Assembly (NCBI RefSeq): GCF_055900595.2 | Contig: NZ_CM148325.1 | DNA length: 64,000 nt | Reading direction: 5' to 3' (one strand) | Shown here: positions 1 through 41,030 of the stretch, piece after piece | Layout of the letters: each line of letters opens with the position of its first letter | How positions within the stretch are numbered: position 1 is the first letter of the stretch | Program-made: the position numbers and the translations under genes | Notes under the pieces: generated by a model | What the model was told of the DNA's origin: nothing | Seen by the model: only the letters and a program-made list of their open reading frames with translations | The model's database searches: none

Positions 1-535
1 TGACGAAACGAAAGCCAAAGCCGAATGGGATAAAGTGACGAGCAAACCCACCAGCCTGACGTTTCTCTACTCCGATAACGACCCGAACTGGGAACCTATT
101 GCTCTGGCAACACAATCCAGCCTCAACAAGCTGGGCATCAATGTGAAGCTGGAAAAGCTGGCGAACGCCACCATGCGCGACAGAGTAGGTAAAGGTGATT
201 ACGACATCGCGATTGGCAACTGGAGTCCGGATTTTGCCGACCCGTATATGTTTATGAATTACTGGTTTGAGTCCGACAAAAAAGGTCTGCCGGGTAACCG
301 CTCGTTCTATGAAAACAGTGAGGTCGATAAGCTACTGCGCAATGCGCTAGCGACCACCGACCAGACGCAGCGTACCCGGGACTACCAGCAGGCACAGAAA
401 ATCGTCATTGATGACGCTGCTTATGTGTACCTGTTCCAGAAAAACTACCAACTGGCGATGAACAAAGAGGTGAAAGGCTTTGTGTTCAATCCCATGCTGG
501 AACAGATCTTCAATATCAATACCATGAGTAAATAA
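1..535 (+). CDS. ddpA: D,D-dipeptide ABC transporter periplasmic binding protein, C-terminal part (5-prime end outside window)
   Basis: Reading frame is open from the window edge to the stop at 533-535. Translation shows a family-5 solute-binding protein C-terminus. Position immediately upstream of ddpBCDF matches the ddp operon. Confidence 0.85.
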   Translation, partial: DETKAKAEWDKVTSKPTSLTFLYSDNDPNWEPIALATQSSLNKLGINVKLEKLANATMRDRVGKGDYDIAIGNWSPDFADPYMFMNYWFESDKKGLPGNRSFYENSEVDKLLRNALATTDQTQRTRDYQQAQKIVIDDAAYVYLFQKNYQLAMNKEVKGFVFNPMLEQIFNINTMSK

Positions 536-536
536 C

Positions 537-1559
537 GTGACCTTCTGGAGTATTTTACGCCAACGCTGCTGGGGGCTGGTGCTCGTGGTGGCGGGCGTCT
601 GTGTGATTACGTTTATTATCTCGCACCTGATCCCCGGCGACCCGGCGCGGTTACTGGCGGGTGACCGCGCCAGCGATGCTATCGTGGATAATATTCGCCA
701 GCAACTGGGACTGGACCAGCCACTGTACGTACAGTTTTACCGCTACGTCAGCGACCTGTTTCAGGGTGACCTGGGAACATCCATTCGTACCGGGCGTCCG
801 GTGCTGGAAGAGTTGCGCATATTTTTCCCGGCGACGCTGGAACTGGCATTTTGCGCTCTGCTGCTGGCACTCCTGGTTGGTATCCCGCTGGGCATACTCT
901 CTGCAGTCTGGCGAAATCGCTGGCTGGATCATCTGGTGCGAATAATGGCCATTACCGGAATCTCCACACCTGCGTTCTGGCTTGGGCTGGGCGTCATTGT
1001 GCTGTTTTATGGTCATCTGCAAATTCTTCCCGGCGGCGGAAGGCTTGATGACTGGCTGGATCCACCAACGCACGTTACCGGCTTTTATCTGCTCGATGCG
1101 CTGCTTGAAGGCAACGGTGAAGTCTTCTTCAATGCGCTGCAACATCTCATCTTACCGGCATTAACGCTGGCGTTCGTTCACCTGGGGATTGTCGCTCGCC
1201 AGATCCGCTCAGCTATGCTGGAACAATTGAGTGAAGACTACATTCGTACCGCCCGGGCCAGCGGCTTGCCCGGCTGGTATATCGTTTTATGTTACGCGCT
1301 ACCCAATGCGTTGATCCCCTCGATTACCGTATTGGGGCTGGCGCTGGGCGATTTGTTGTATGGCGCAGTGCTCACCGAAACCGTTTTTGCCTGGCCTGGA
1401 ATGGGTGCATGGGTAGTAACATCAATACAGGCGCTCGACTTCCCGGCAGTGATGGGCTTTGCCGTCGTGGTTTCATTTGCTTATGTGCTGGTCAACCTGG
1501 TGGTGGATTTGCTCTATTTGTGGATTGATCCGCGTATCGGACGTGGAGGTGATGAATGA
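537..1559 (+). CDS. ddpB: D,D-dipeptide ABC transporter permease
   Basis: 340-aa ORF with multiple hydrophobic segments typical of a DppB-type permease. Tightly coupled to flanking ddp genes. Confidence 0.9.
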   Translation: MTFWSILRQRCWGLVLVVAGVCVITFIISHLIPGDPARLLAGDRASDAIVDNIRQQLGLDQPLYVQFYRYVSDLFQGDLGTSIRTGRPVLEELRIFFPATLELAFCALLLALLVGIPLGILSAVWRNRWLDHLVRIMAITGISTPAFWLGLGVIVLFYGHLQILPGGGRLDDWLDPPTHVTGFYLLDALLEGNGEVFFNALQHLILPALTLAFVHLGIVARQIRSAMLEQLSEDYIRTARASGLPGWYIVLCYALPNALIPSITVLGLALGDLLYGAVLTETVFAWPGMGAWVVTSIQALDFPAVMGFAVVVSFAYVLVNLVVDLLYLWIDPRIGRGGDE

Positions 1560-2452
1560 TGCTAAGCGAGGAAACGTCCGTCGTACGCCCACCAAAACAA
1601 ACGCGATTTAACGGTGCAAAACTGGTATGGATGCTGAAAGGCAGTCCGCTCACCGTGACCGGCGCAGTCATCATTGTATTAATGCTACTGATGATGATTT
1701 TTTCACCGTGGCTGGCGACGCATGATCCCAACGCCATTGATTTAACTGCCCGCCTTTTGCCGCCTTCTGCGGCGCACTGGTTTGGCACCGATGAAGTGGG
1801 ACGCGATCTGTTTAGCCGCGTACTGGTCGGCAGTCAGCAATCAATTCTCGCCGGATTAGTGGTGGTCGCCATTGCGGGTATGATGGGTTCGCTACTCGGG
1901 TGTCTATCCGGTGTGCTTGGCGGCCGCGCAGACGCGATCATCATGCGCATCATGGACATTATGCTGTCGATTCCTTCGCTGGTGCTGACAATGGCGCTGG
2001 CTGCCGCACTTGGACCGAGTTTGTTTAACGCCATGCTGGCGATTGCTATCGTGCGTATCCCGTTTTATGTGCGCCTGGCGCGGGGGCAAACATTAGTTGT
2101 TCGCCAGTACACTTACGTTCAGGCGGCGAAAACCTTTGGTGCGTCGCGTTGGCATCTGATCAACTGGCATATTTTACGTAACTCCCTGCCGCCGCTGATT
2201 GTGCAGGCATCGCTGGATATTGGTAGCGCGATTTTAATGGCCGCCACGTTGGGATTTATTGGCCTGGGTGCTCAACAACCGAGTGCTGAATGGGGGGCGA
2301 TGGTGGCGAATGGCCGCAACTATGTGCTCGATCAATGGTGGTATTGCGCATTTCCGGGGGCAGCGATTTTGCTTACCGCCGTCGGGTTCAATCTCTTTGG
2401 TGATGGTATTCGCGATCTGCTTGACCCGAAAGCAGGAGGAAAGCAGTCATGA
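1556..2452 (+). CDS. ddpC: D,D-dipeptide ABC transporter permease
   Basis: 298-aa membrane protein of DppC type. 4-bp overlap with ddpB indicates translational coupling. Confidence 0.9.
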   Translation: MMLSEETSVVRPPKQTRFNGAKLVWMLKGSPLTVTGAVIIVLMLLMMIFSPWLATHDPNAIDLTARLLPPSAAHWFGTDEVGRDLFSRVLVGSQQSILAGLVVVAIAGMMGSLLGCLSGVLGGRADAIIMRIMDIMLSIPSLVLTMALAAALGPSLFNAMLAIAIVRIPFYVRLARGQTLVVRQYTYVQAAKTFGASRWHLINWHILRNSLPPLIVQASLDIGSAILMAATLGFIGLGAQQPSAEWGAMVANGRNYVLDQWWYCAFPGAAILLTAVGFNLFGDGIRDLLDPKAGGKQS

Positions 2453-3435
2453 CCCAACCCGTTCTGGACATTCAACAGCTGCATTTGAGTTTCTCCGGTT
2501 TTAACGGCGACGTTCACGCGCTCAACAATGTGTCATTGAAAATCAACCGCGGTGAAATTGTCGGTCTGGTGGGAGAATCCGGCTCGGGTAAATCAGTCAC
2601 TGCAATGTTGATTATGCGTCTGTTACCGACGGGTAGTTATTGCGTACATCGGGGACATATTTCACTGCTGGGAGAAGATGCTCTTAACGCTCGGGAAAAA
2701 CAGCTTCGTCAGTGGCGCGGCGCACGAGTGGCGATGATCTTTCAGGAACCGATGACCGCCCTAAATCCGACACGTCGAATAGGTCTTCAGATGATGGACG
2801 TGATCCGCCATCATCAACCAATAAGTCGTAGGGAAGCCAGAGCTAAAGCGATTGCCCTGCTGGAAGAGATGCAAATCCCGGATGCCGTGGAAGTTATGTC
2901 GCGCTATCCGTTTGAGCTTTCAGGTGGTATGCGCCAGCGGGTAATGATTGCGCTGGCATTCTCCTGCGAGCCGCAATTGATTATTGCCGACGAACCGACT
3001 ACGGCGCTGGACGTCACGGTACAGTTGCAGGTACTGCGTCTGCTTAAACATAAAGCCCGCGCCAGTGGAACTGCGGTACTGTTCATCAGCCATGATATGG
3101 CCGTGGTGTCGCAACTGTGCGATAGCGTTTACGTGATGTATGCCGGAAGCGTGATCGAGAGCGGCATGACGGCAGACGTTATCCATCATCCCCAGCATCC
3201 GTATACCATTGGTTTGCTGCAATGCGCACCGGAACATGGAATACCACGCCAGCCATTACCCGCCATTCCAGGGACGGTACCAAACCTCACCCATTTGCCT
3301 GACGGCTGCGCTTTTCGCGATCGTTGCTATGCGGCAGGTACACAGTGTGAAAACGTCCCGGCGCTGACAGCGTGTGGTGACAACAACCACCGCTGCGCCT
3401 GTTGGTATCCTCAGCAGGAGGTCATTAGTGTCTGA
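2449..3435 (+). CDS. ddpD: D,D-dipeptide ABC transporter ATP-binding protein
   Basis: Walker A (GESGSGKS), ABC signature (LSGGMRQR) and Walker B (IIADEPTTALD) are present in the translation. Confidence 0.9.
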   Translation: MTQPVLDIQQLHLSFSGFNGDVHALNNVSLKINRGEIVGLVGESGSGKSVTAMLIMRLLPTGSYCVHRGHISLLGEDALNAREKQLRQWRGARVAMIFQEPMTALNPTRRIGLQMMDVIRHHQPISRREARAKAIALLEEMQIPDAVEVMSRYPFELSGGMRQRVMIALAFSCEPQLIIADEPTTALDVTVQLQVLRLLKHKARASGTAVLFISHDMAVVSQLCDSVYVMYAGSVIESGMTADVIHHPQHPYTIGLLQCAPEHGIPRQPLPAIPGTVPNLTHLPDGCAFRDRCYAAGTQCENVPALTACGDNNHRCACWYPQQEVISV

Positions 3436-32739: not shown

Positions 32740-35700
32740 TTAAAATCTTACATAATCACTAAATATATCTCTAAATTCATCAAGTTCACTTTGAGTTGGT
32801 CTTTCCCATCGGTCAGTATTTCTATTCATTCGATGTTGGATATTTTTCCTAGAGATATCCCTCATAGATGTGACAATTTCAGAACCATCTTTTTCAATTA
32901 TATGTGCTCTGCCATTTGGTCCCAGTACAACCCACCGCCCATCTGATTGCTTTAATATATCGCTAGAACGCGCATTTTGAAGATCATTAATAACAGCACC
33001 AATAGGTCGACCTTCACGATGCCGTTGTAAAGCATGACTACTTTTCTTCAAAGTAGCACACATCTGTCCCAACGGATCGATCCAACTTAATGGATTCGGT
33101 GCATATTGATAGAGATTCAGTCCCCCCGCCAGCCCTATCGGGTCCGTTACCATGAACCGCCCGACATCCGGATCATAGTACCTGTGCAGATTGTAATGCA
33201 GCCCTGTTTCCCTGTCGAGGTACTGTCCCTGGTAGCGCAGGTTCTGCTCCACCCCGCCGTGGTCCTTCTCCTGTATCGTGTTACCCCAGACCTGATACCC
33301 CGTCTCCCACACGATTTTCCCGTCACTGTCCGTCATCTCTTCCGGCGCACCGTTCACATCCGTGTGAAAATACAGTATCCGGTTCGGTCCCTCTTTGCCC
33401 GCCTTATCCACCCGCGCCAGCGGTTCATAACTCCCCTGGTCACTGTAGATATACAGGCTGCCTGTTCCCTCCGGCCTGCTCTCCTGCGCCAGCCGCATTC
33501 CGTCCCATAAAAATGTCGTCCGGTTATACGGTTTACCGTCAGGGCTGATGTGCTGTTTTTCCGTCCGCCTCCCCAGCGCATCGTACACATACCGGTACGT
33601 TCCCCGCGCTGTCGTCACTTCCACCATCCGGTGTTCCGCATCATAACGGTAACTCTGCGCTCCGCTCCGGCCCTGCTTTTCCACCGTCCGGCCAAATTCG
33701 TCGTAACGGTAGTGCACACCACGGTAAGACATCAGCCGGTTGAACGGCACAACGCTGTTTTCTGCCGTGGCCCTTTCCCCCGCACGCCGCCCCAGCAGGT
33801 TTCCCGCCGCGTCGTACTGCCAGCTCGCCAGATACCCCTCATCCTCCGAGCGGCACGCCGTGATGCGCCCCGTGGGGTCGTAGAAGTAATCCGTTTCCCC
33901 CCGCCGGCTGTGCCGCGTCTTCAGCAGTTCATCCTCGCCGCTGTAGCTGTACTGCCGGTCCGTGAACGTCTCCGGTACCACCCCGCGCATCCCGCTGTAT
34001 GTCTCCCTGCGCTTCAGCCGCCCGGCGGTGTCGTAAAGCTGCCGCGTGCTCAGTCGCCCCTGACTTCTGAGCACCTCCCGGTGCAGGGCGTCACGTGTGA
34101 ACTCGCTGATGACCTCCCGGTCCAGATTTATCTGCTGGAGATGGCCGCTGCCGTAGTACAGATGGCGCTGCGTTCTGCCGTCCGGAAAGGTGGTGGCTGT
34201 CCGGTTGCCCAGTTCATCGTACTGATGGGTCAGGACGCCCTGCGCCGTCTCCTCGGTCAGCATCCGCCCCAGTCTGTCGTAACTGAAGCGGATAACTTCC
34301 GGCGCGTCAGTTTCGTGCCGCTGGCGGCGGATTTCCAGTAGCTGGTCTGCCGCATCATGGACGTATTCCGTATGGCTATCGGCTGTCTCCTTTGCCGTGA
34401 GCCGGCCCGCCGCATCGCGCGCCAGCCGGTGACGGATTTCACCGCCCCGGTCCCCGGTGAACACCACTTCCGTGACCGCGTTCAGCGCGTTGTAACGGTA
34501 CGCCTGGCGGCAGCCGTCCGGATTTATCTGCTCCGCCAGACGGTCCAGCACATCATGGCGGAACCGGTAGCTTTCTCCGTTCTCGTTCGTGAGCGTGACC
34601 AGACGCCCGTAAGCATCGTACCCGAACGCCGTCCTGCGCCCCGTCGCGTCTGTCCGGCTGCGCACCCGGCCCTGCCCGTCCCGCTGCCAGCGCGTTATCC
34701 TCCCCATCGGGCTGGTGTACTTCACCAGCCTGCCCGCCGCGTCCGACTGGTAATTCACCGTGCGGCCGTCCGCCAGTATCACCTCCGTCAGATGACCGCT
34801 GTCGTCATACCCGTAGCGCGTGCTGTGGCTCTGCGCGTCTGTCATTCTGATAAGCCGCGTGCGTTCGTCGTAGAACCAGGCCGTCTGCGAGCCGGAACAG
34901 TCCGTGTGCCGCATGAGCTGCCCGTCTTCGTTCCACTGAAGGTATTTATTCCCCCCACGGGCATCGGTTATCTGCACCACCTGGCCGTGGCGGTCATACT
35001 GATACCGGGTGTTCTGCTGCAGCGGGTCGGTCACCGCAAGAAGATTGCCGCGTTCATCGTACTCACAGCACCAGCTGTTCCCCGCCGCGTCCACCTCCGT
35101 TTCCGGCTGGTGCCACACCGGGTGCCACTGTGTCTGTGCCACCCGCCCCAGCGGGTCGTGCGTCTCCGTGATATGCCCCTGCCGGTCATACACATAGCGC
35201 CATTTGCCGCCCTGCGCATCGCTCATTCCCAGTAACAGCCGTTCTTCGTCGCTCCAGCGGAACGTCGTCACCTGCCCGGCTTCGTCCTGGTACGCCGTCA
35301 CCTGGTTCTGCGCATCCCACTGATGATAACGCGTGCGCCCCAGCCCGTCCGTCACGCACAGCCTGCGTGCCGCCAGGCTCCACGCCAGCCGGTACTGTTC
35401 ACCGCTGTCCGTGTGGTGCCCCGTCACCCGCCACGCTGCGTCATCCGGGCCTTCATACCAGCCCCACTGGTAATAATACCCTTCGCCGCCCGGCTGGCGG
35501 TGCAGGGTCATGCAGTGGTTTTCGTCGTAAGCAAACTCACGCAGCAGGTGCCCCGTGCTGTCGTACACGCCGTTCAGGTCGCCGGCCTCGTCATAGCGGT
35601 AACGACGCAGCAGTAAAGGAGCCGTCTCAGGGAAATGCTGATAAATCTGTGTCACCCGCCGGGGATGCGCCGCCAGTTCATAATGCAGACGAATGCACGG

Positions 35701-37371
35701 ACGCTGCTGTTCACCGCTGATTTGCGTGATGCGCCCCAGCTCGTCGTAGTACAGATTCAGACAGTTGCTGTTGCGGTCGCCCAGCATTTTCAGCCGCTGG
35801 CGCTGCGGGTGATGCGGGTCGGCTTCAAACAGAAAAAACTGCCCGTCATCGCTGCTGATAAGCCAGTGCCCCTGCTCACCCCGCCGTACTGCCAGTCCTT
35901 CGCCGGGGCTGTAAAACCCGCTCCCCGGCAGCACGGCCTCCATATCCAGGCGTCGTCCCATGCCCGACACAAAGGTCATACAGTTTTCGTCAGCAGTACC
36001 CGGCGTGCGCTCGAGGCTGACTTCATACATCACGCTCCAGCCCTGCCCGAACATCCCTTCCGTGCGGTCGTCACGACTGCTGTACACGCGCTGCCAGTCC
36101 AGCGGAAAGTGGCCCGGCAGACTGAAATCGAAGTCATCGTCATCCGCCAGATATTTGGCTCCGGTGGCGGCATTGACCGGATGCGGAAGGGCACTGATGG
36201 CCTTCTGCGTCATCACCCCCATCCCGACACTGGCAGCAAAACAGGCGATTTTAGAAAGCATTTTGCCCGGGCGAAGAAACATCAGCGCCACGGTTGCCAC
36301 CAGGGTTATCTGCGACCTGCCGCTTCTGATATCCCTGACCACCAGTAACGGACCGCCAATGCGGACATCCGGTGACAAAAACGCCCCGTTCCCCGGCTCA
36401 TTCACCACCCTGGCCTCGCAGGTACAGCGTGCCCCGCTGCGTGCCGCCGGCTGGCTGTTGATACGCACATCCCGCGCGCCTTCCGCGATATATTCCGCTG
36501 CGGGCGGTTCATCATCGCCTTTGAACAGATTACTGATGCTGCCAATAACCGCATTCACTCCCTGAAAGGCGGTTTCCAGCATACCGCCCGGACTCAACAG
36601 GTTAAGGGCCGTTCCCAGGGGGTCATCCAGAAAGGCGGCTTTTTTTTGTGCGAGAAACTGCGTCAGTGAGGAGGGATGTTTATGGCAGTCGATTTTATCG
36701 TCAGGGGTCGGGGTGGAGCCCGGGGCCGCACTGGCCACGGTGGGCTGCCATAGTTCCGACACAAAATGTGTCACGCCATCCACCATTTCAGAACGCCCTT
36801 CTTCCGTACTGAGCTGGTCGTGCAGCGCCCGGGACATCAGCACAGGCCCTGTCACCGGGTTAACCGCCAGGGCTATGGCCCCCGCCATTTCCAGATATTC
36901 CCCGGCCACATCCAGAAACGTTCTGGCATCCTCCTGACGCTGCGCTTCTTCCTGTTCCGCCTTCGCCTTCGCCTGCGCCTCCTGCGCCTCAATGTCCTGC
37001 CGTGATGCCGCAGTCGCCGCGGCCCGCGCGGCAGGTTTGCTGTTGATCCATGTGTCGCCAGAGCCGGTGAGGATGTAACCTTCAATCTGAGGCGGGAAAA
37101 GCCAGTTCGCCAGTTGCTCACTTTCCCTACTGATTCGGTCATTCCAGCCCTGATACGACATAAATACCGCTGTTGCTATACCGATCGCTAAAATGGTTGA
37201 GCAGCCCAGCGTTGCCACTTCAACTCCGCCCAGCGCCGCCATGGTTCCGACAACCAGAACATCCACCAGGGCTGTGGCGGCAACCTCTACAACTGCCCCC
37301 AGCACATCTGCTATAAACGACGTATGCAGCAGGGCATCACCCTGCCTTGCTGCCCAGAATGCCTCTTCCAT
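32740..37371 (-). CDS. full-length Rhs polymorphic toxin with N-terminal prePAAR motif, TM helices and PAAR domain (T6SS cargo effector)
   Basis: 1543-aa ORF. N-terminus has AARQGDALLH (prePAAR AARxxDxxxH) followed by hydrophobic helices, then a PAAR-like region (VRINSQPAARSGARCTCEARVVNEPGNG). Long YD-repeat core, conserved core end YAPNPLSWIDPLGQ, and a roughly 108-aa C-terminal tip of unknown activity. Confidence 0.85.
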   Translation of the reverse strand: MEEAFWAARQGDALLHTSFIADVLGAVVEVAATALVDVLVVGTMAALGGVEVATLGCSTILAIGIATAVFMSYQGWNDRISRESEQLANWLFPPQIEGYILTGSGDTWINSKPAARAAATAASRQDIEAQEAQAKAKAEQEEAQRQEDARTFLDVAGEYLEMAGAIALAVNPVTGPVLMSRALHDQLSTEEGRSEMVDGVTHFVSELWQPTVASAAPGSTPTPDDKIDCHKHPSSLTQFLAQKKAAFLDDPLGTALNLLSPGGMLETAFQGVNAVIGSISNLFKGDDEPPAAEYIAEGARDVRINSQPAARSGARCTCEARVVNEPGNGAFLSPDVRIGGPLLVVRDIRSGRSQITLVATVALMFLRPGKMLSKIACFAASVGMGVMTQKAISALPHPVNAATGAKYLADDDDFDFSLPGHFPLDWQRVYSSRDDRTEGMFGQGWSVMYEVSLERTPGTADENCMTFVSGMGRRLDMEAVLPGSGFYSPGEGLAVRRGEQGHWLISSDDGQFFLFEADPHHPQRQRLKMLGDRNSNCLNLYYDELGRITQISGEQQRPCIRLHYELAAHPRRVTQIYQHFPETAPLLLRRYRYDEAGDLNGVYDSTGHLLREFAYDENHCMTLHRQPGGEGYYYQWGWYEGPDDAAWRVTGHHTDSGEQYRLAWSLAARRLCVTDGLGRTRYHQWDAQNQVTAYQDEAGQVTTFRWSDEERLLLGMSDAQGGKWRYVYDRQGHITETHDPLGRVAQTQWHPVWHQPETEVDAAGNSWCCEYDERGNLLAVTDPLQQNTRYQYDRHGQVVQITDARGGNKYLQWNEDGQLMRHTDCSGSQTAWFYDERTRLIRMTDAQSHSTRYGYDDSGHLTEVILADGRTVNYQSDAAGRLVKYTSPMGRITRWQRDGQGRVRSRTDATGRRTAFGYDAYGRLVTLTNENGESYRFRHDVLDRLAEQINPDGCRQAYRYNALNAVTEVVFTGDRGGEIRHRLARDAAGRLTAKETADSHTEYVHDAADQLLEIRRQRHETDAPEVIRFSYDRLGRMLTEETAQGVLTHQYDELGNRTATTFPDGRTQRHLYYGSGHLQQINLDREVISEFTRDALHREVLRSQGRLSTRQLYDTAGRLKRRETYSGMRGVVPETFTDRQYSYSGEDELLKTRHSRRGETDYFYDPTGRITACRSEDEGYLASWQYDAAGNLLGRRAGERATAENSVVPFNRLMSYRGVHYRYDEFGRTVEKQGRSGAQSYRYDAEHRMVEVTTARGTYRYVYDALGRRTEKQHISPDGKPYNRTTFLWDGMRLAQESRPEGTGSLYIYSDQGSYEPLARVDKAGKEGPNRILYFHTDVNGAPEEMTDSDGKIVWETGYQVWGNTIQEKDHGGVEQNLRYQGQYLDRETGLHYNLHRYYDPDVGRFMVTDPIGLAGGLNLYQYAPNPLSWIDPLGQMCATLKKSSHALQRHREGRPIGAVINDLQNARSSDILKQSDGRWVVLGPNGRAHIIEKDGSEIVTSMRDISRKNIQHRMNRNTDRWERPTQSELDEFRDIFSDYVRF

Positions 37372-37389: not shown

Positions 37390-37842
37390 TTAATTCGTCC
37401 CGGCTTCCTGCCGTATCCTGAAGCGCAGATTCTTTTTAATTTCAGCCCAGCGCGTCATATCTGCCGGGGTCAGCGGTGTGGTTCTGGCGTAGGTGAAGGC
37501 CATCATGACCCGCTCACCCGGCAACACAAATGCCACCTGACACTGGTACACCTGCTCGTTACCCCGGAGAAACTGACTCTGTATTTCCAGCCCTTCTTCA
37601 CCGTCATTAATCCCTACCCGTGTTACCTGAACGGGCGTGTAGTGAAGATCCTTTACCTGTTTCTCCAGTTTTTTCATTTGCTGTTCAATCTGGGAGGCTA
37701 ATTCGTCTCCTTCCTGCATCTGGCCCCGGCTGATAATGAGTGCAGCGTCGGGATCGCTGAGACGCAGCATATTAATCGTACTGTCCTGAATAATATTCCC
37801 GGGGAAAGTTACAACAGTTTCATTGAGATAATACTCCGTCAT
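37390..37842 (-). CDS. DUF1795 / Eag-family effector-associated chaperone
   Basis: 150-aa ORF between vgrG and the prePAAR-Rhs gene. Size and position match Eag chaperones that stabilise prePAAR-effector TM helices; assignment is by context and size, not alignment. Confidence 0.6.
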   Translation of the reverse strand: MTEYYLNETVVTFPGNIIQDSTINMLRLSDPDAALIISRGQMQEGDELASQIEQQMKKLEKQVKDLHYTPVQVTRVGINDGEEGLEIQSQFLRGNEQVYQCQVAFVLPGERVMMAFTYARTTPLTPADMTRWAEIKKNLRFRIRQEAGTN

Positions 37843-37892: not shown

Positions 37893-39887
37893 TTATTTTT
37901 TAGTCATGAAGGTGACGTCTATTGCCAACTGAAGGGCTGTTTTCTCCGATGTTCCAGGCGGAGGTATATCTGCCGCTCTGTCATTCATATTTAAATCAAG
38001 CTGCCCTGATTGTGTATTTATCTTTCCATTTTCCGTTGCGGTAATATTAAAATTCTTACAGGTTATATTAAATATTCCGTCACTGGTCATTTGCAGGATA
38101 GTTTCTCCGCAGCTAAGAATAATGGAATCTCCCGCAGCAAGGCGTAAATTCTGTACGGCCTGAATCGTTTTATTTCGTCCGGCAAGGGAGGTATCATCCG
38201 TCTGGACTGTTAGAGAACGTTTCTCACCAATAATCGCAGTTTCTGTTTTATCAATGACTTTAAGGCGATTATTGCCCACCCAGTGGCTTTCATTATTATT
38301 TACTTCAATGCGTTGATCTTTCTCGGCATGCAACCAGATTTCTTCTCCGCCAGTTTTATCCTCAAAACGCAAGGCGTTAGCATTGGTCGGGCCGCCGCCG
38401 ATAGTGTGGCTGTAAAACCCGCTTTGCGTCGCTGCGCCCGGTAGTCCCCACGGTGGCATGGTGTCCTGATTGTAGGTACGCCCAACGATTATCGGTAAAT
38501 CCGGATCACCGTTTTTGAAATCCACCAGTACTTCCTGACCAATGCGCGGGATCTGAATGCCACCGAATCCTTTACCCGCCCACGGATAACTGACACGGAC
38601 CCAGCAGGAACTGTTTTCATCATTCTTACCGTAACGATCCCAGCCAAACTGAACTTTCACCCGGCCATATTTATCTGTCCAGATTTCCTGTCCCGTCGGG
38701 CCGGTCACGATGGCGCTCTGCGGGCCTTTAGTATGGGGTTTGCTCAGGGTTCGCTGCGGGCGGTAAACTTCGCTGGTGGGATGCAGTTCAAAGCTGGTTG
38801 AGTAAGAGAAATGCTGCTCCTGGCCGCTGTGTTGCGCATTGTCCTGTATAAATAGCGTGGTCTGAACCAGCAGATATTCCCGGTTCACTTCGGCTGTCGG
38901 ATAGTTTTCCAGGGTGAAGGTAAAACCTGTCATCAGGGTACGAATATTGCCGCTGCCCTGTACCCGACTACCGGGGCTACACTGTTCTTCCATGCGGATG
39001 CGTGTCAGCATTTCACCTTCACTCTTTGTGAAGTAGTCTCCCGGCCATTCGTAGTGCTCATATTCAGCAAGGCCAGTTTCACGCGGATTAGCCACGGTGC
39101 TCTTGAGCAGTGAACGCGGCTTCATAAAGTCGAAATCATTTAGTACCCACTGTCCGCTGCGCAGGCTTTCATTTGCTGTGATGGTATGGATAAATTCCTT
39201 GTCCAGTTTCAGCCCTTTCTGGTAATAACACACCAGTGGCGAATCTGCGCACGCCTTGTGGACATTAATGGCATCAGCCAGCACTAACGTGTGACTGTTC
39301 TCGTTGTGCTCAAACCACCAGTAGATACCCCACTCCTGCATCAGGCGCTGAATAAAATCGAAATCTGTTTCACCGTACTGCACCTGCCAGGCGCGAGTCG
39401 GATAATTTTCCACCAGTCGTTTTTCCACTGGCCAGGGGTACTCATCCAGTACCTCATCCAGGATCTCCACCACGTTTTTATTTTGAAACGCTTTGTAGTC
39501 ACTAGTGTGGGTCAGTATTTTTAACCACGGTTCAATCCGCAGTTCATACACCACCGAACGTCCTTGATGACCAGCCACGCGTGCCGCCGTCACCAGCCCG
39601 CTGATATAACGTTTTCCGCCGCCATCCAATTCGATATTGACGCACAGATCTTTGCCCACCATCGGTTTGAGCTGCAGGTTGGCTGCGGGGGAAACATAGC
39701 CCAGGTTCAGGATGTCAGGAGTTTTTAATTTAATAGAATAAGTAAATAGTTCCCCTACTGTTTCTGTCCCCCCTAAGCTTGCAAACAGTAACATTCCATC
39801 AGGAACTGCGCTGCCGCTCAAAGTCACGTTATGTGTACCCGATCCAGTTAGTGCGCCGGATGGATAATCTGTAGCTGCAAAACTCAT
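37893..39887 (-). CDS. vgrG: type VI secretion system spike protein VgrG
   Basis: 664-aa ORF with gp27/gp5-like features (e.g. [63 protein letters not shown], beta-helical repeats). Directly upstream of eag-rhs. The N-terminus is atypical; start taken as the first ATG after the upstream stop. Confidence 0.85.
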
Positions 39888-40242
39888 AATTAATCCTTTT
39901 AACTAGAAATGGCTAAGTGCTAATAAGAAATCTTACAGAGAATAAAATATGCAATATATTCGTAGCTGGCATAAAACATCTCAATACTTATGCGTGCTAC
40001 TGAAGATACTATCAACCATATATGCCTTGAAGAATGCACCATCATGTTAACCTGGTGGAAACATTCACCTAAAGTACATTAATAAAACCAATAAAATTAT
40101 TTAATCTGTTATTTGATATGATTATCATCAAATCTTAAAATACGTTCCCCGGTTCTAATTATGCTAAAACCATAATATTCTTTTGTACTTCCGGAAGAGA
40201 GCATATATTTCCCGATATACATAACATCTGAAGATAGCTCAC

Positions 40243-40464
40243 TTATGTCAATACATTGGGATCGAACTGACCTGTCACTCTTTTCAATTTTATTGCATTG
40301 CCATATTTACCTTCATATAAAATATAATTTGAAATAATATTCCCATCGTCTGGTTTTGAACAAACCCGCCCGTCTTGTAAATATACATTACCGGGTAACA
40401 ATGGGCGAACATAATCACCAACAGTGCATCCCGATAAAAAGAATAACAAAAAGAATCTCTTCAT
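40243..40464 (-). CDS. small predicted lipoprotein (candidate immunity/inhibitor partner of the upstream HExxH protein)
   Basis: 73-aa ORF with signal peptide and lipobox (MKRFFLLFFLSGC). Start overlaps the upstream gene stop (ATGA). Confidence 0.55.
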   Translation of the reverse strand: MKRFFLLFFLSGCTVGDYVRPLLPGNVYLQDGRVCSKPDDGNIISNYILYEGKYGNAIKLKRVTGQFDPNVLT

Positions 40465-41030
40465 ATGACACCAGCAGGAAATAAATTAAGCACCTTCTTG
40501 TATTTTTCCGATAGAGTATTCACTGATTCTGTTGTATCACCTACATAGTTAACATTTGCCAAATCAGAGACCAATCCATAGTTAATCAATAGCCAATAAT
40601 CAGCAACTATAGATGCTTGTTGTTCCATAGAATAAGAAGAAATTGACTGTAAATTAAGATCGTAATGATAATTTGCCGCCCAGGAAAATAAACCACGCAA
40701 CTTAACTGCATACCCTTTCTGATATTGCCAAACATGCATCGTTTCATGAATAAACAAGTGAGAAGCACCTGCAACTGTTTCACGATCACCAGGCATTGCT
40801 TGCGATGAAAAATCTGAACTATAAACAGCATCAGGATAATACATTTCCCCGTTTGGGGTCATCGCTGTTCTTTCCCCTTGACCAGGCAAATATTTTTCAT
40901 TGTGGATCCATACCTTGCTATAATCAATTGTATTCTCAAAAATCGATCTGGCCAATGTTAATTCACCAGATGTCATTCTCCTTAATGATATATCCTTTCC
41001 CCTGGAAATAATATCTTTCAGATAAAACAC
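40461..41030 (-). CDS. hypothetical HExxH-motif protein (putative zinc metallopeptidase-like toxin/effector)
   Basis: 189-aa ORF containing HETMHVWQ (HExxHxxQ). No signal peptide. Translationally coupled to the downstream lipoprotein and co-directional with vgrG. Family unassigned. Confidence 0.5.
   Translation of the reverse strand: MFYLKDIISRGKDISLRRMTSGELTLARSIFENTIDYSKVWIHNEKYLPGQGERTAMTPNGEMYYPDAVYSSDFSSQAMPGDRETVAGASHLFIHETMHVWQYQKGYAVKLRGLFSWAANYHYDLNLQSISSYSMEQQASIVADYWLLINYGLVSDLANVNYVGDTTESVNTLSEKYKKVLNLFPAGVI

Follow-up and report, generated by a model that had tools for sequence, protein, structure and literature searches.

The toxin tip of an Rhs effector at the Escherichia coli rhsE locus: a widespread predicted domain and a candidate BECR-type ribonuclease

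What is the activity carried by the last hundred or so residues of an Rhs effector when these residues resemble nothing in the curated libraries? The question is raised by a stretch of 64,000 nucleotides (NCBI RefSeq assembly GCF_055900595.2, contig NZ_CM148325.1; the whole of it is called the window below), which represents the E. coli rhsE locus and encodes an Rhs protein of 1543 amino acids (aa) ending in a small basic tip. Rhs tips without assignment are common, as they made up 69.6% in a 2025 survey. For this one, we propose, with a probability of roughly 50%, that it would be delivered by a type VI secretion system (T6SS) and act in the cytoplasm of the recipient cell as a metal-independent ribonuclease (RNase) resembling those of the BECR fold.

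The tip (isoelectric point (pI) 9.73; 14 Arg, 5 Lys and 4 His in 107 aa) matched nothing in Pfam (E<=10), NCBIfam, PHROGs, PADLOC or, by phmmer, the PDB sequences; two profiles run on the PDB returned no toxin, and a word-indexed search yielded eight close relatives only, in E. coli, Salmonella, Pectobacterium and Escherichia sp. A family profile was built from these eight sequences and run against 1.84 billion cluster representatives, of which 410 matched at E<=1e-3 and 121 at E<=1e-10. Among the matches spanning the whole domain, 107 of 108 placed it at the extreme C-terminus of its carrier. These carriers are diverse. In Pseudomonas nitroreducens, the domain ends a CdiA of 3736 aa that also has hemagglutinin repeats and a TPS domain; elsewhere it is found on VENN-motif proteins (Orbaceae, Providencia), on Rhs proteins of Brevibacillus and Paenibacillus, and on polymorphic-toxin proteins with a HINT domain. 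The toxin-domain family spans both Gram-negative and Gram-positive bacteria, in two phyla, on Rhs, CdiA and HINT-domain carriers. No Pfam family was detected at E<=0.001 in any of 83 aligned members, the best match to a BECR-related family being Colicin_E5 (E 0.04, in one member). Judged from its sequence, the tip therefore represents a polymorphic-toxin domain of wide distribution, unmatched in the curated libraries searched, which agrees with an initial annotation of this DNA that had left its activity unassigned. The tip also lies far beyond chance, because identical or near-identical copies exist in eight genomes and remote homologues number in the hundreds.

Conservation, computed over the 83 aligned sequences and numbered from Q1436 as residue 1, is concentrated on a few polar positions and glycines: H11 (96%; H1446 in the numbering of the Rhs protein), R15 (99%; R1450), G19 (93%), R20 (95%; R1455) and D28 (100%; D1463), followed in the second half by G49 (93%), R53 (99%; R1488), H55 (93%; H1490), G61 (90%) and T66 (98%; T1501). 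The E. coli tip retains every one of these residues, and the family can be summarized by the motif [KR][ST]xHAxxR...GR...D...GRxH...T[ST]. A Salmonella survey of 2026 described 45 new toxin hidden Markov models (PMC12994826). The accessions of the Salmonella homologues are absent from its supplementary tables (45 STox groups); it is possible that the family already stands under an STox name. In Proteus mirabilis, orphan copies of the toxin domain are fused to remnants of the Rhs core (locus L005, 3516-3989; locus L006, 3135-3989) and, unlike the immunity genes, they are not called as genes.

Immediately behind the tip lies a small acidic open reading frame (ORF), whose ATG follows the rhs stop codon after 12 nt. 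This ORF had been put forward in the initial annotation as an acidic immunity candidate of 108 aa. The candidate itself is well chosen, being acidic, adjacent to the toxin and co-diverging with it, but its length needs correction. The frame 32410-32736 of the minus strand has 108 codons if begun at GTG 32736; the ATG at 32727 is preceded by AGGTGA and gives the product annotated in RefSeq, and the listed homologues mostly measure 101-107 aa, so that 105 aa is the probable length. The protein has a pI of 4.6 and an N-terminus that is not signal-like, and it matched no family, Pfam included, with nothing significant in NCBIfam, PHROGs or PADLOC.

Its homologues form 15 clusters, from E. coli, Salmonella, Proteus and Gilliamella, and the two genes keep company in four other genera or species: toxin and immunity locus tags are consecutive in Salmonella (QB794_004572, QB794_004573), the genes are adjacent in Pectobacterium, and at two Proteus loci a toxin ORF left uncalled by the annotators ends 12 nt before the immunity gene. 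Identity to the E. coli pair falls jointly for toxin and immunity protein, from 95/86% in Salmonella to 86/76% in Proteus and 67/44% in Pectobacterium. In Gilliamella, the immunity gene stands in an island of such genes, and the toxin is missing. Both members of the pair are under purifying selection: between E. coli and Proteus, the ratio of nonsynonymous to synonymous substitution rates (dN/dS) is 0.05 in the toxin gene and 0.10 in its partner. We regard it as highly probable that the tip and the downstream ORF form the toxin-immunity pair of a polymorphic toxin system.

The limits of the tip could be placed with some precision. Two motifs of DPxGL type, 17 residues apart, stand directly before the variable end of the protein. 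In Photorhabdus Rhs1, the same arrangement precedes autocleavage, and the shell stops at the Leu of the second DPLGL (PMC8636562); therefore the boundary drawn in the initial annotation coincides with the expected cleavage site. The Rhs_assc_core match (NCBIfam, E 8e-29, residues 1359-1436) likewise stops exactly at 1436. By analogy, cleavage of the Rhs protein is predicted between Q1436 and M1437. At this P1 position, close relatives have L or W, and Gram-positive carriers R, M, H, N or Y. With a G+C content of 0.37, the tip stands well below the core (0.61), and the immunity gene is lower still (0.31); a drop of this kind typically marks Rhs tips that have been exchanged.

Other elements of the initial annotation fared unequally. 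The extent of the tip was right, its exact length being 107 aa instead of about 108, as the interval also takes in Q1436 and the stop codon; 'basic' is an apt description, and 'His-rich' a mild overstatement for four His. The assignment to Rhs is borne out by RHS_core (NCBIfam, E 9e-97), YD_repeat_2x (12 stretches) and the Rhs_assc_core just mentioned. The strand had to be changed: the feature lies on the minus strand and not on the strand as presented, where the translation of 32740-33066 is interrupted by stops throughout. In the minus-strand translation, the C-terminus of the 1543-aa protein reads ...YAPNPLSWIDPLGQMCATLKK...DYVRF.

The reading as an RNase stems from the predicted fold and the conserved residues. 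Two AlphaFold2 models, computed from 8 and 83 sequences, each reached a mean predicted local distance difference test (pLDDT) value of about 83, and both contain a helix at 22-31, strands at 37-40, 45-48, 54-57 and 63-68, and helices at 73-81 and 92-101. With the larger set of sequences, a further helix of low confidence appears at 10-18, which bears H11 and R15. Zhang et al. defined the BECR fold by a helical segment at the N-terminus and, behind it, a meander of four strands, the last of which has a conserved S/T; in the colicin E5/D-like clades there is also an N-terminal His (PMC3482391). BECR nucleases use a conserved set of Asp, His and Arg, and Salmonella Rhs2 is one of them (bioRxiv 10.64898/2026.05.10.723254). 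The helix with its four-stranded meander is present in both predicted models of the tip, in which T66 falls in strand 4 and H55 in strand 3, while H11 falls in the first helix of the model from 83 sequences; across these sequences, His, Arg and Asp/Glu are conserved, and so is an alcoholic residue in strand 4. The second AlphaFold2 model returned, as before, CdiA-CT of O32:H37 (4.8), colicin D (4.1) and CdiA-CT of NC101 (4.0), in alignments that cover the full domain (60-68 of 88-94 residues). That the toxin is basic (pI 9.7) and its immunity partner acidic (pI 4.6) was also counted for this reading. The initial guess that the tip might be a nuclease thus receives weak to moderate support, and toward RNA, not DNA, as the predicted fold and the His/Arg/Asp/Thr set resemble BECR RNase toxins.

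A series of results weighs against this reading. None of the named BECR families (Colicin_D, Colicin_E5, Ntox7/19/21/35/36/41/47/48/49/50, EndoU, Barnase, RelE) gave a Pfam match at E<=0.001, the profile search of the PDB did not return colicin D or E5 and picked up NHL-repeat proteins instead, and Foldseek against AFDB50 found uncharacterized homologues only. Confidence is low for the modelled helix bearing H11 and R15 (pLDDT about 53). On the side of delivery, the cleavage motif has Gln at P1 (DPLGQ|M, 33064-33066, minus strand) in place of the canonical Leu of DPLGL, and T6SS core genes are lacking within the 64-kb window, which therefore holds an auxiliary module. Because there is no sequence or profile link to BECR families and because NHL proteins match, we treat a BECR-type RNase as the best hypothesis, at about even odds, and not as a family membership.

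If this hypothesis is right, the following sequence of events can be envisaged; its delivery steps follow established Rhs work (PMC8636562), and delivery to the cytoplasm, RNase chemistry, substrate and neutralization are what we infer. An Eag chaperone would shield the N-terminal hydrophobic segments of the Rhs protein, whose prePAAR and PAAR regions would seat it on the VgrG spike. The YD-repeat shell would cage the 107-aa tip, and an internal aspartyl protease would cut after DPLGQ (Q1436|M1437). After T6SS injection into a neighbouring cell, the tip would reach the cytoplasm. Action in this compartment is assumed because the immunity protein is predicted to be cytoplasmic and because, in the CdiA forms, about 165 residues separate the VENN motif from the toxin domain. 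There, a predicted active site made of H1446 (N-terminal helix), H1490 (strand 3) and T1501 (strand 4), with R1450, R1455, R1488 and D1463, would cleave RNA without a metal, probably tRNA or another translation RNA, and protein synthesis would be blocked. In producer and sibling cells, the acidic 105-aa immunity protein would bind the toxin one-to-one and protect them.

Other activities can also be envisaged for the tip. A genuine polymorphic toxin acting in the cytoplasm could cleave DNA, modify nucleotides or RNA, or inhibit a translation factor such as EF-Tu; the likeness to BECR would then be that of a generic helix-plus-meander fold only. This is possible, and we lean against it. A doubtful further option is that the tip founds a toxin superfamily not described so far, in which the H-R-R-D-R-H-T set would be mounted on a blade-like meander and serve a new chemistry or target; examples could be a cofactor-dependent or translation-factor-dependent RNA modification, or the stoichiometric inhibition of a protein.

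Several known families were tried for the tip and set aside. DUF4258 (PF14076) was suggested by the HAxxR...R-G pattern, but hhalign of the family alignment against a PF14076 protein aligned 12 residues only, those of the HAxxR stretch, with a probability of 3%. The colicin D tRNase family (Tox-ColD) has the signature [KH]K, Hxx[ED], [ST] and [TS]xxK and an ImmD-type immunity protein; the tip contains K7-K8-x-x-H11, but it has HAxxR instead of Hxx[ED] and lacks [TS]xxK, and Pfam gave no match for the toxin or the immunity protein when membership was tested. PD-(D/E)xK, HNH, deaminase and ADP-ribosyltransferase readings were rejected by reasoning on the alignment, which shows no conserved (D/E)xK and no metal-binding His/Cys set, in a domain that is too small.

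A different kind of objection is that the cassette is decaying or undeliverable in this strain, either through a Gln at P1 that blocks autocleavage or for want of a functional T6SS. Besides DPLGQ in place of DPLGL and the lack of T6SS core genes in the window, two features of its distribution speak for this. The tip is rare, occurring in 8 of the 5426 complete genomes searched (the 901 bases around it are 100% identical in three and about 98% identical in five more), and three other E. coli genomes (e.g. NZ_CM128605.1, locus L002, 6557-10740) carry the tip and its immunity gene on a shortened Rhs (3231 bp) beside a vgrG pseudogene, which indicates decay of the module in some lineages. In the window, however, the genes assigned as vgrG, eag and rhs are intact, as is the immunity gene; the near-invariant residues of the family are all kept, the toxin evolves at a dN/dS of 0.05, and other Rhs proteins with this domain show R, M, H, N, Y or W behind DPxG. 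Decay or failed delivery in this strain is improbable.

The PDB search also produced an observation on the meander. Over positions of about 25-72 (tip D36-T66), the family profile gives summed weak matches to NHL propellers (TRIM71, TRIM2, Thin; E 1e-5 to 5e-3); it likewise matches 10 repeat proteins in at least two stretches, 8 of the 10 in six. At the motif level, the toxin meander is similar in sequence to a propeller blade; membership of the NHL or beta-propeller families was rejected, as the tip holds a single blade-like unit and no tandem blades. That the core would be one such blade (NHL or FG-GAP-like) serving as a binding module, with Arg and His in structural and not catalytic roles, is the least probable reading of all, since the individual repeat matches are all insignificant (i-Evalue 4 to 3000), the unit is single and accompanied by four flanking helices, the best conserved residues (H11, R15, R20, D28) lie outside the blade-like part, and both the dedicated co-diverging immunity gene and the fixed position at the toxin end in at least three types of carrier would go unexplained.

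The remainder of the protein is built like a T6SS effector (table 1). From the N- to the C-terminus, it comprises prePAAR, a first hydrophobic segment, a split PAAR, a second hydrophobic segment, DUF6531, the YD-repeat shell, the Rhs-associated core and the tip. AARQGDALLH fits the consensus AARxxDxxxH by which prePAAR is defined (PMC8636562). The hydrophobic stretches were read by eye from the sequence at about 17-75 and 355-400, and Pfam detected PAAR_motif at residues 293-323 (E 1.7e-5), a weak piece of it at 97-119, and DUF6531. On this domain content, the protein is a standard T6SS effector chassis of the prePAAR class. The two PAAR pieces are parted by about 170 residues (window positions of about 36400-37090, minus strand), which hold an Ala/Glu/Gln-rich stretch, QDIEAQEAQAKAKAEQEEAQRQEDAR; there may be a large insertion within the PAAR domain. 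The rhs gene of the window is also 6 nt (2 codons) longer than the copy in NZ_CP098223.1 (locus L001, 9441-14066), in which the tip and immunity region is 100% identical.

Table 1. Positions in the window of the Rhs effector, its predicted parts and the neighbouring genes.
Feature	Position	Strand	Description and basis
Rhs toxin tip (predicted)	32740..33066	-	Q1436 + M1437-F1543 (107 aa) + stop codon
Putative autoproteolysis signature	33064..33144	-	DPIGL (1410-1414), 17 residues, DPLGQ (1432-1436); sequence
Full-length Rhs effector	32740..37371	-	1543 aa; ORF and translation
prePAAR motif	37324..37353	-	AARQGDALLH, Rhs residues 7-16; read from translation
Probable cognate immunity gene	32410..32727	-	105 aa from ATG at 32727; RefSeq hypothetical protein WP_129708641
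Putative Eag-type chaperone gene	37390..37842	-	150 aa; ORF between vgrG and rhs; identical gene in RefSeq: DcrB-related protein
Predicted VgrG spike gene	37893..39887	-	664 aa; ORF; RefSeq: type VI secretion system Vgr family protein
Orphan Rhs core remnant ending DPLGL, fused in frame to Tox-REase-7 tip	31227..32306 (module); 31908-32306 (tip)	-	Pfam E 3e-8
SUKH-4 immunity gene behind Tox-REase-7 tip	31227-31811	-	RefSeq annotation

The locus is flanked by narZ-narH-narW-narI-yddE-nhoA-yddH on one side and by ansP-yncE on the other. The vgrG, Eag-like and rhs genes and the small acidic ORF share one orientation, and RefSeq lists the same region of one matching genome in the order Vgr family protein, DcrB-related (Eag-type) protein, Rhs, hypothetical protein, Rhs fragment, putative toxin and SUKH-4 immunity protein. 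The 150-aa and 664-aa ORFs stand where Eag and VgrG genes would be expected, and the NCBIfam scan found nothing significant for the 150-aa Eag-type ORF. With respect to mobile elements, a search of phages gave no match, and one of plasmids a single Providencia plasmid. The orphan Tox-REase-7 module adjoins the tip and immunity pair downstream and is without an ATG before a late internal Met. Upstream of vgrG, an ORF of 189 aa with an HExxH motif (IHETMHVWQ; 40461-41030, minus strand) had no match in Pfam, NCBIfam or PHROGs, and next to it (about 40109-40464, minus strand) stands a gene marked by RefSeq as a frameshifted lipoprotein. From their sequences, the two could be a metallopeptidase-type cargo effector and its decayed immunity gene.

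The Rhs and CdiA tips constitute a large reservoir of antibacterial enzymes, most of them unassigned. In this reservoir, the family described here is compact, with about 100 residues and a clear motif, and its activity, once shown, would annotate hundreds of toxins. Should RNA cleavage prove true, the family would be a new clade of the BECR radiation, and it might bring a new RNA specificity that could serve as a tool. The locus also illustrates that rhsE, which in K-12 is a pseudogene, can accommodate what is predicted to be a full weapon (vgrG, eag, rhs and immunity gene), here armed with a rarely found tip.

As a system, this locus is of an ordinary kind; its family is broad, with more than 400 clusters at 50% identity, and without a match in the curated libraries. 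With Photorhabdus laumondii Rhs1-EagR-VgrG and P. protegens RhsA it shares prePAAR, hydrophobic N-terminal segments, PAAR and the YD shell, as well as two DPxGL motifs 17 residues apart; genes of putative Eag and VgrG type lie upstream. It differs from Photorhabdus Rhs1 in its unrelated tip (Tre23 is an ADP-ribosyltransferase), in its Gln at P1 and in a PAAR domain that is apparently split by an insert of about 170 aa. The tip itself was compared with the BECR tRNases, namely the colicin D domain (1tfk, 5znm) and CdiA-CT of E. coli O32:H37 (8ey4) and NC101 (5i4q), to which it has no detectable sequence or profile similarity. Where colicin D has the signature Hxx[ED] and [TS]xxK, the tip has HAxxR...GR and GRxH...T[ST]; unlike the colicin D and CdiA-CT tRNases, it has two extra C-terminal helices and an immunity protein unrelated to the named families. 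Salmonella Typhimurium Rhs2 (Ntox47), with its immunity protein SciX, is among the closest known systems. From the predicted models and by analogy, we infer that the tip would work most like the colicin D and CdiA-CT tRNases and Salmonella Rhs2.

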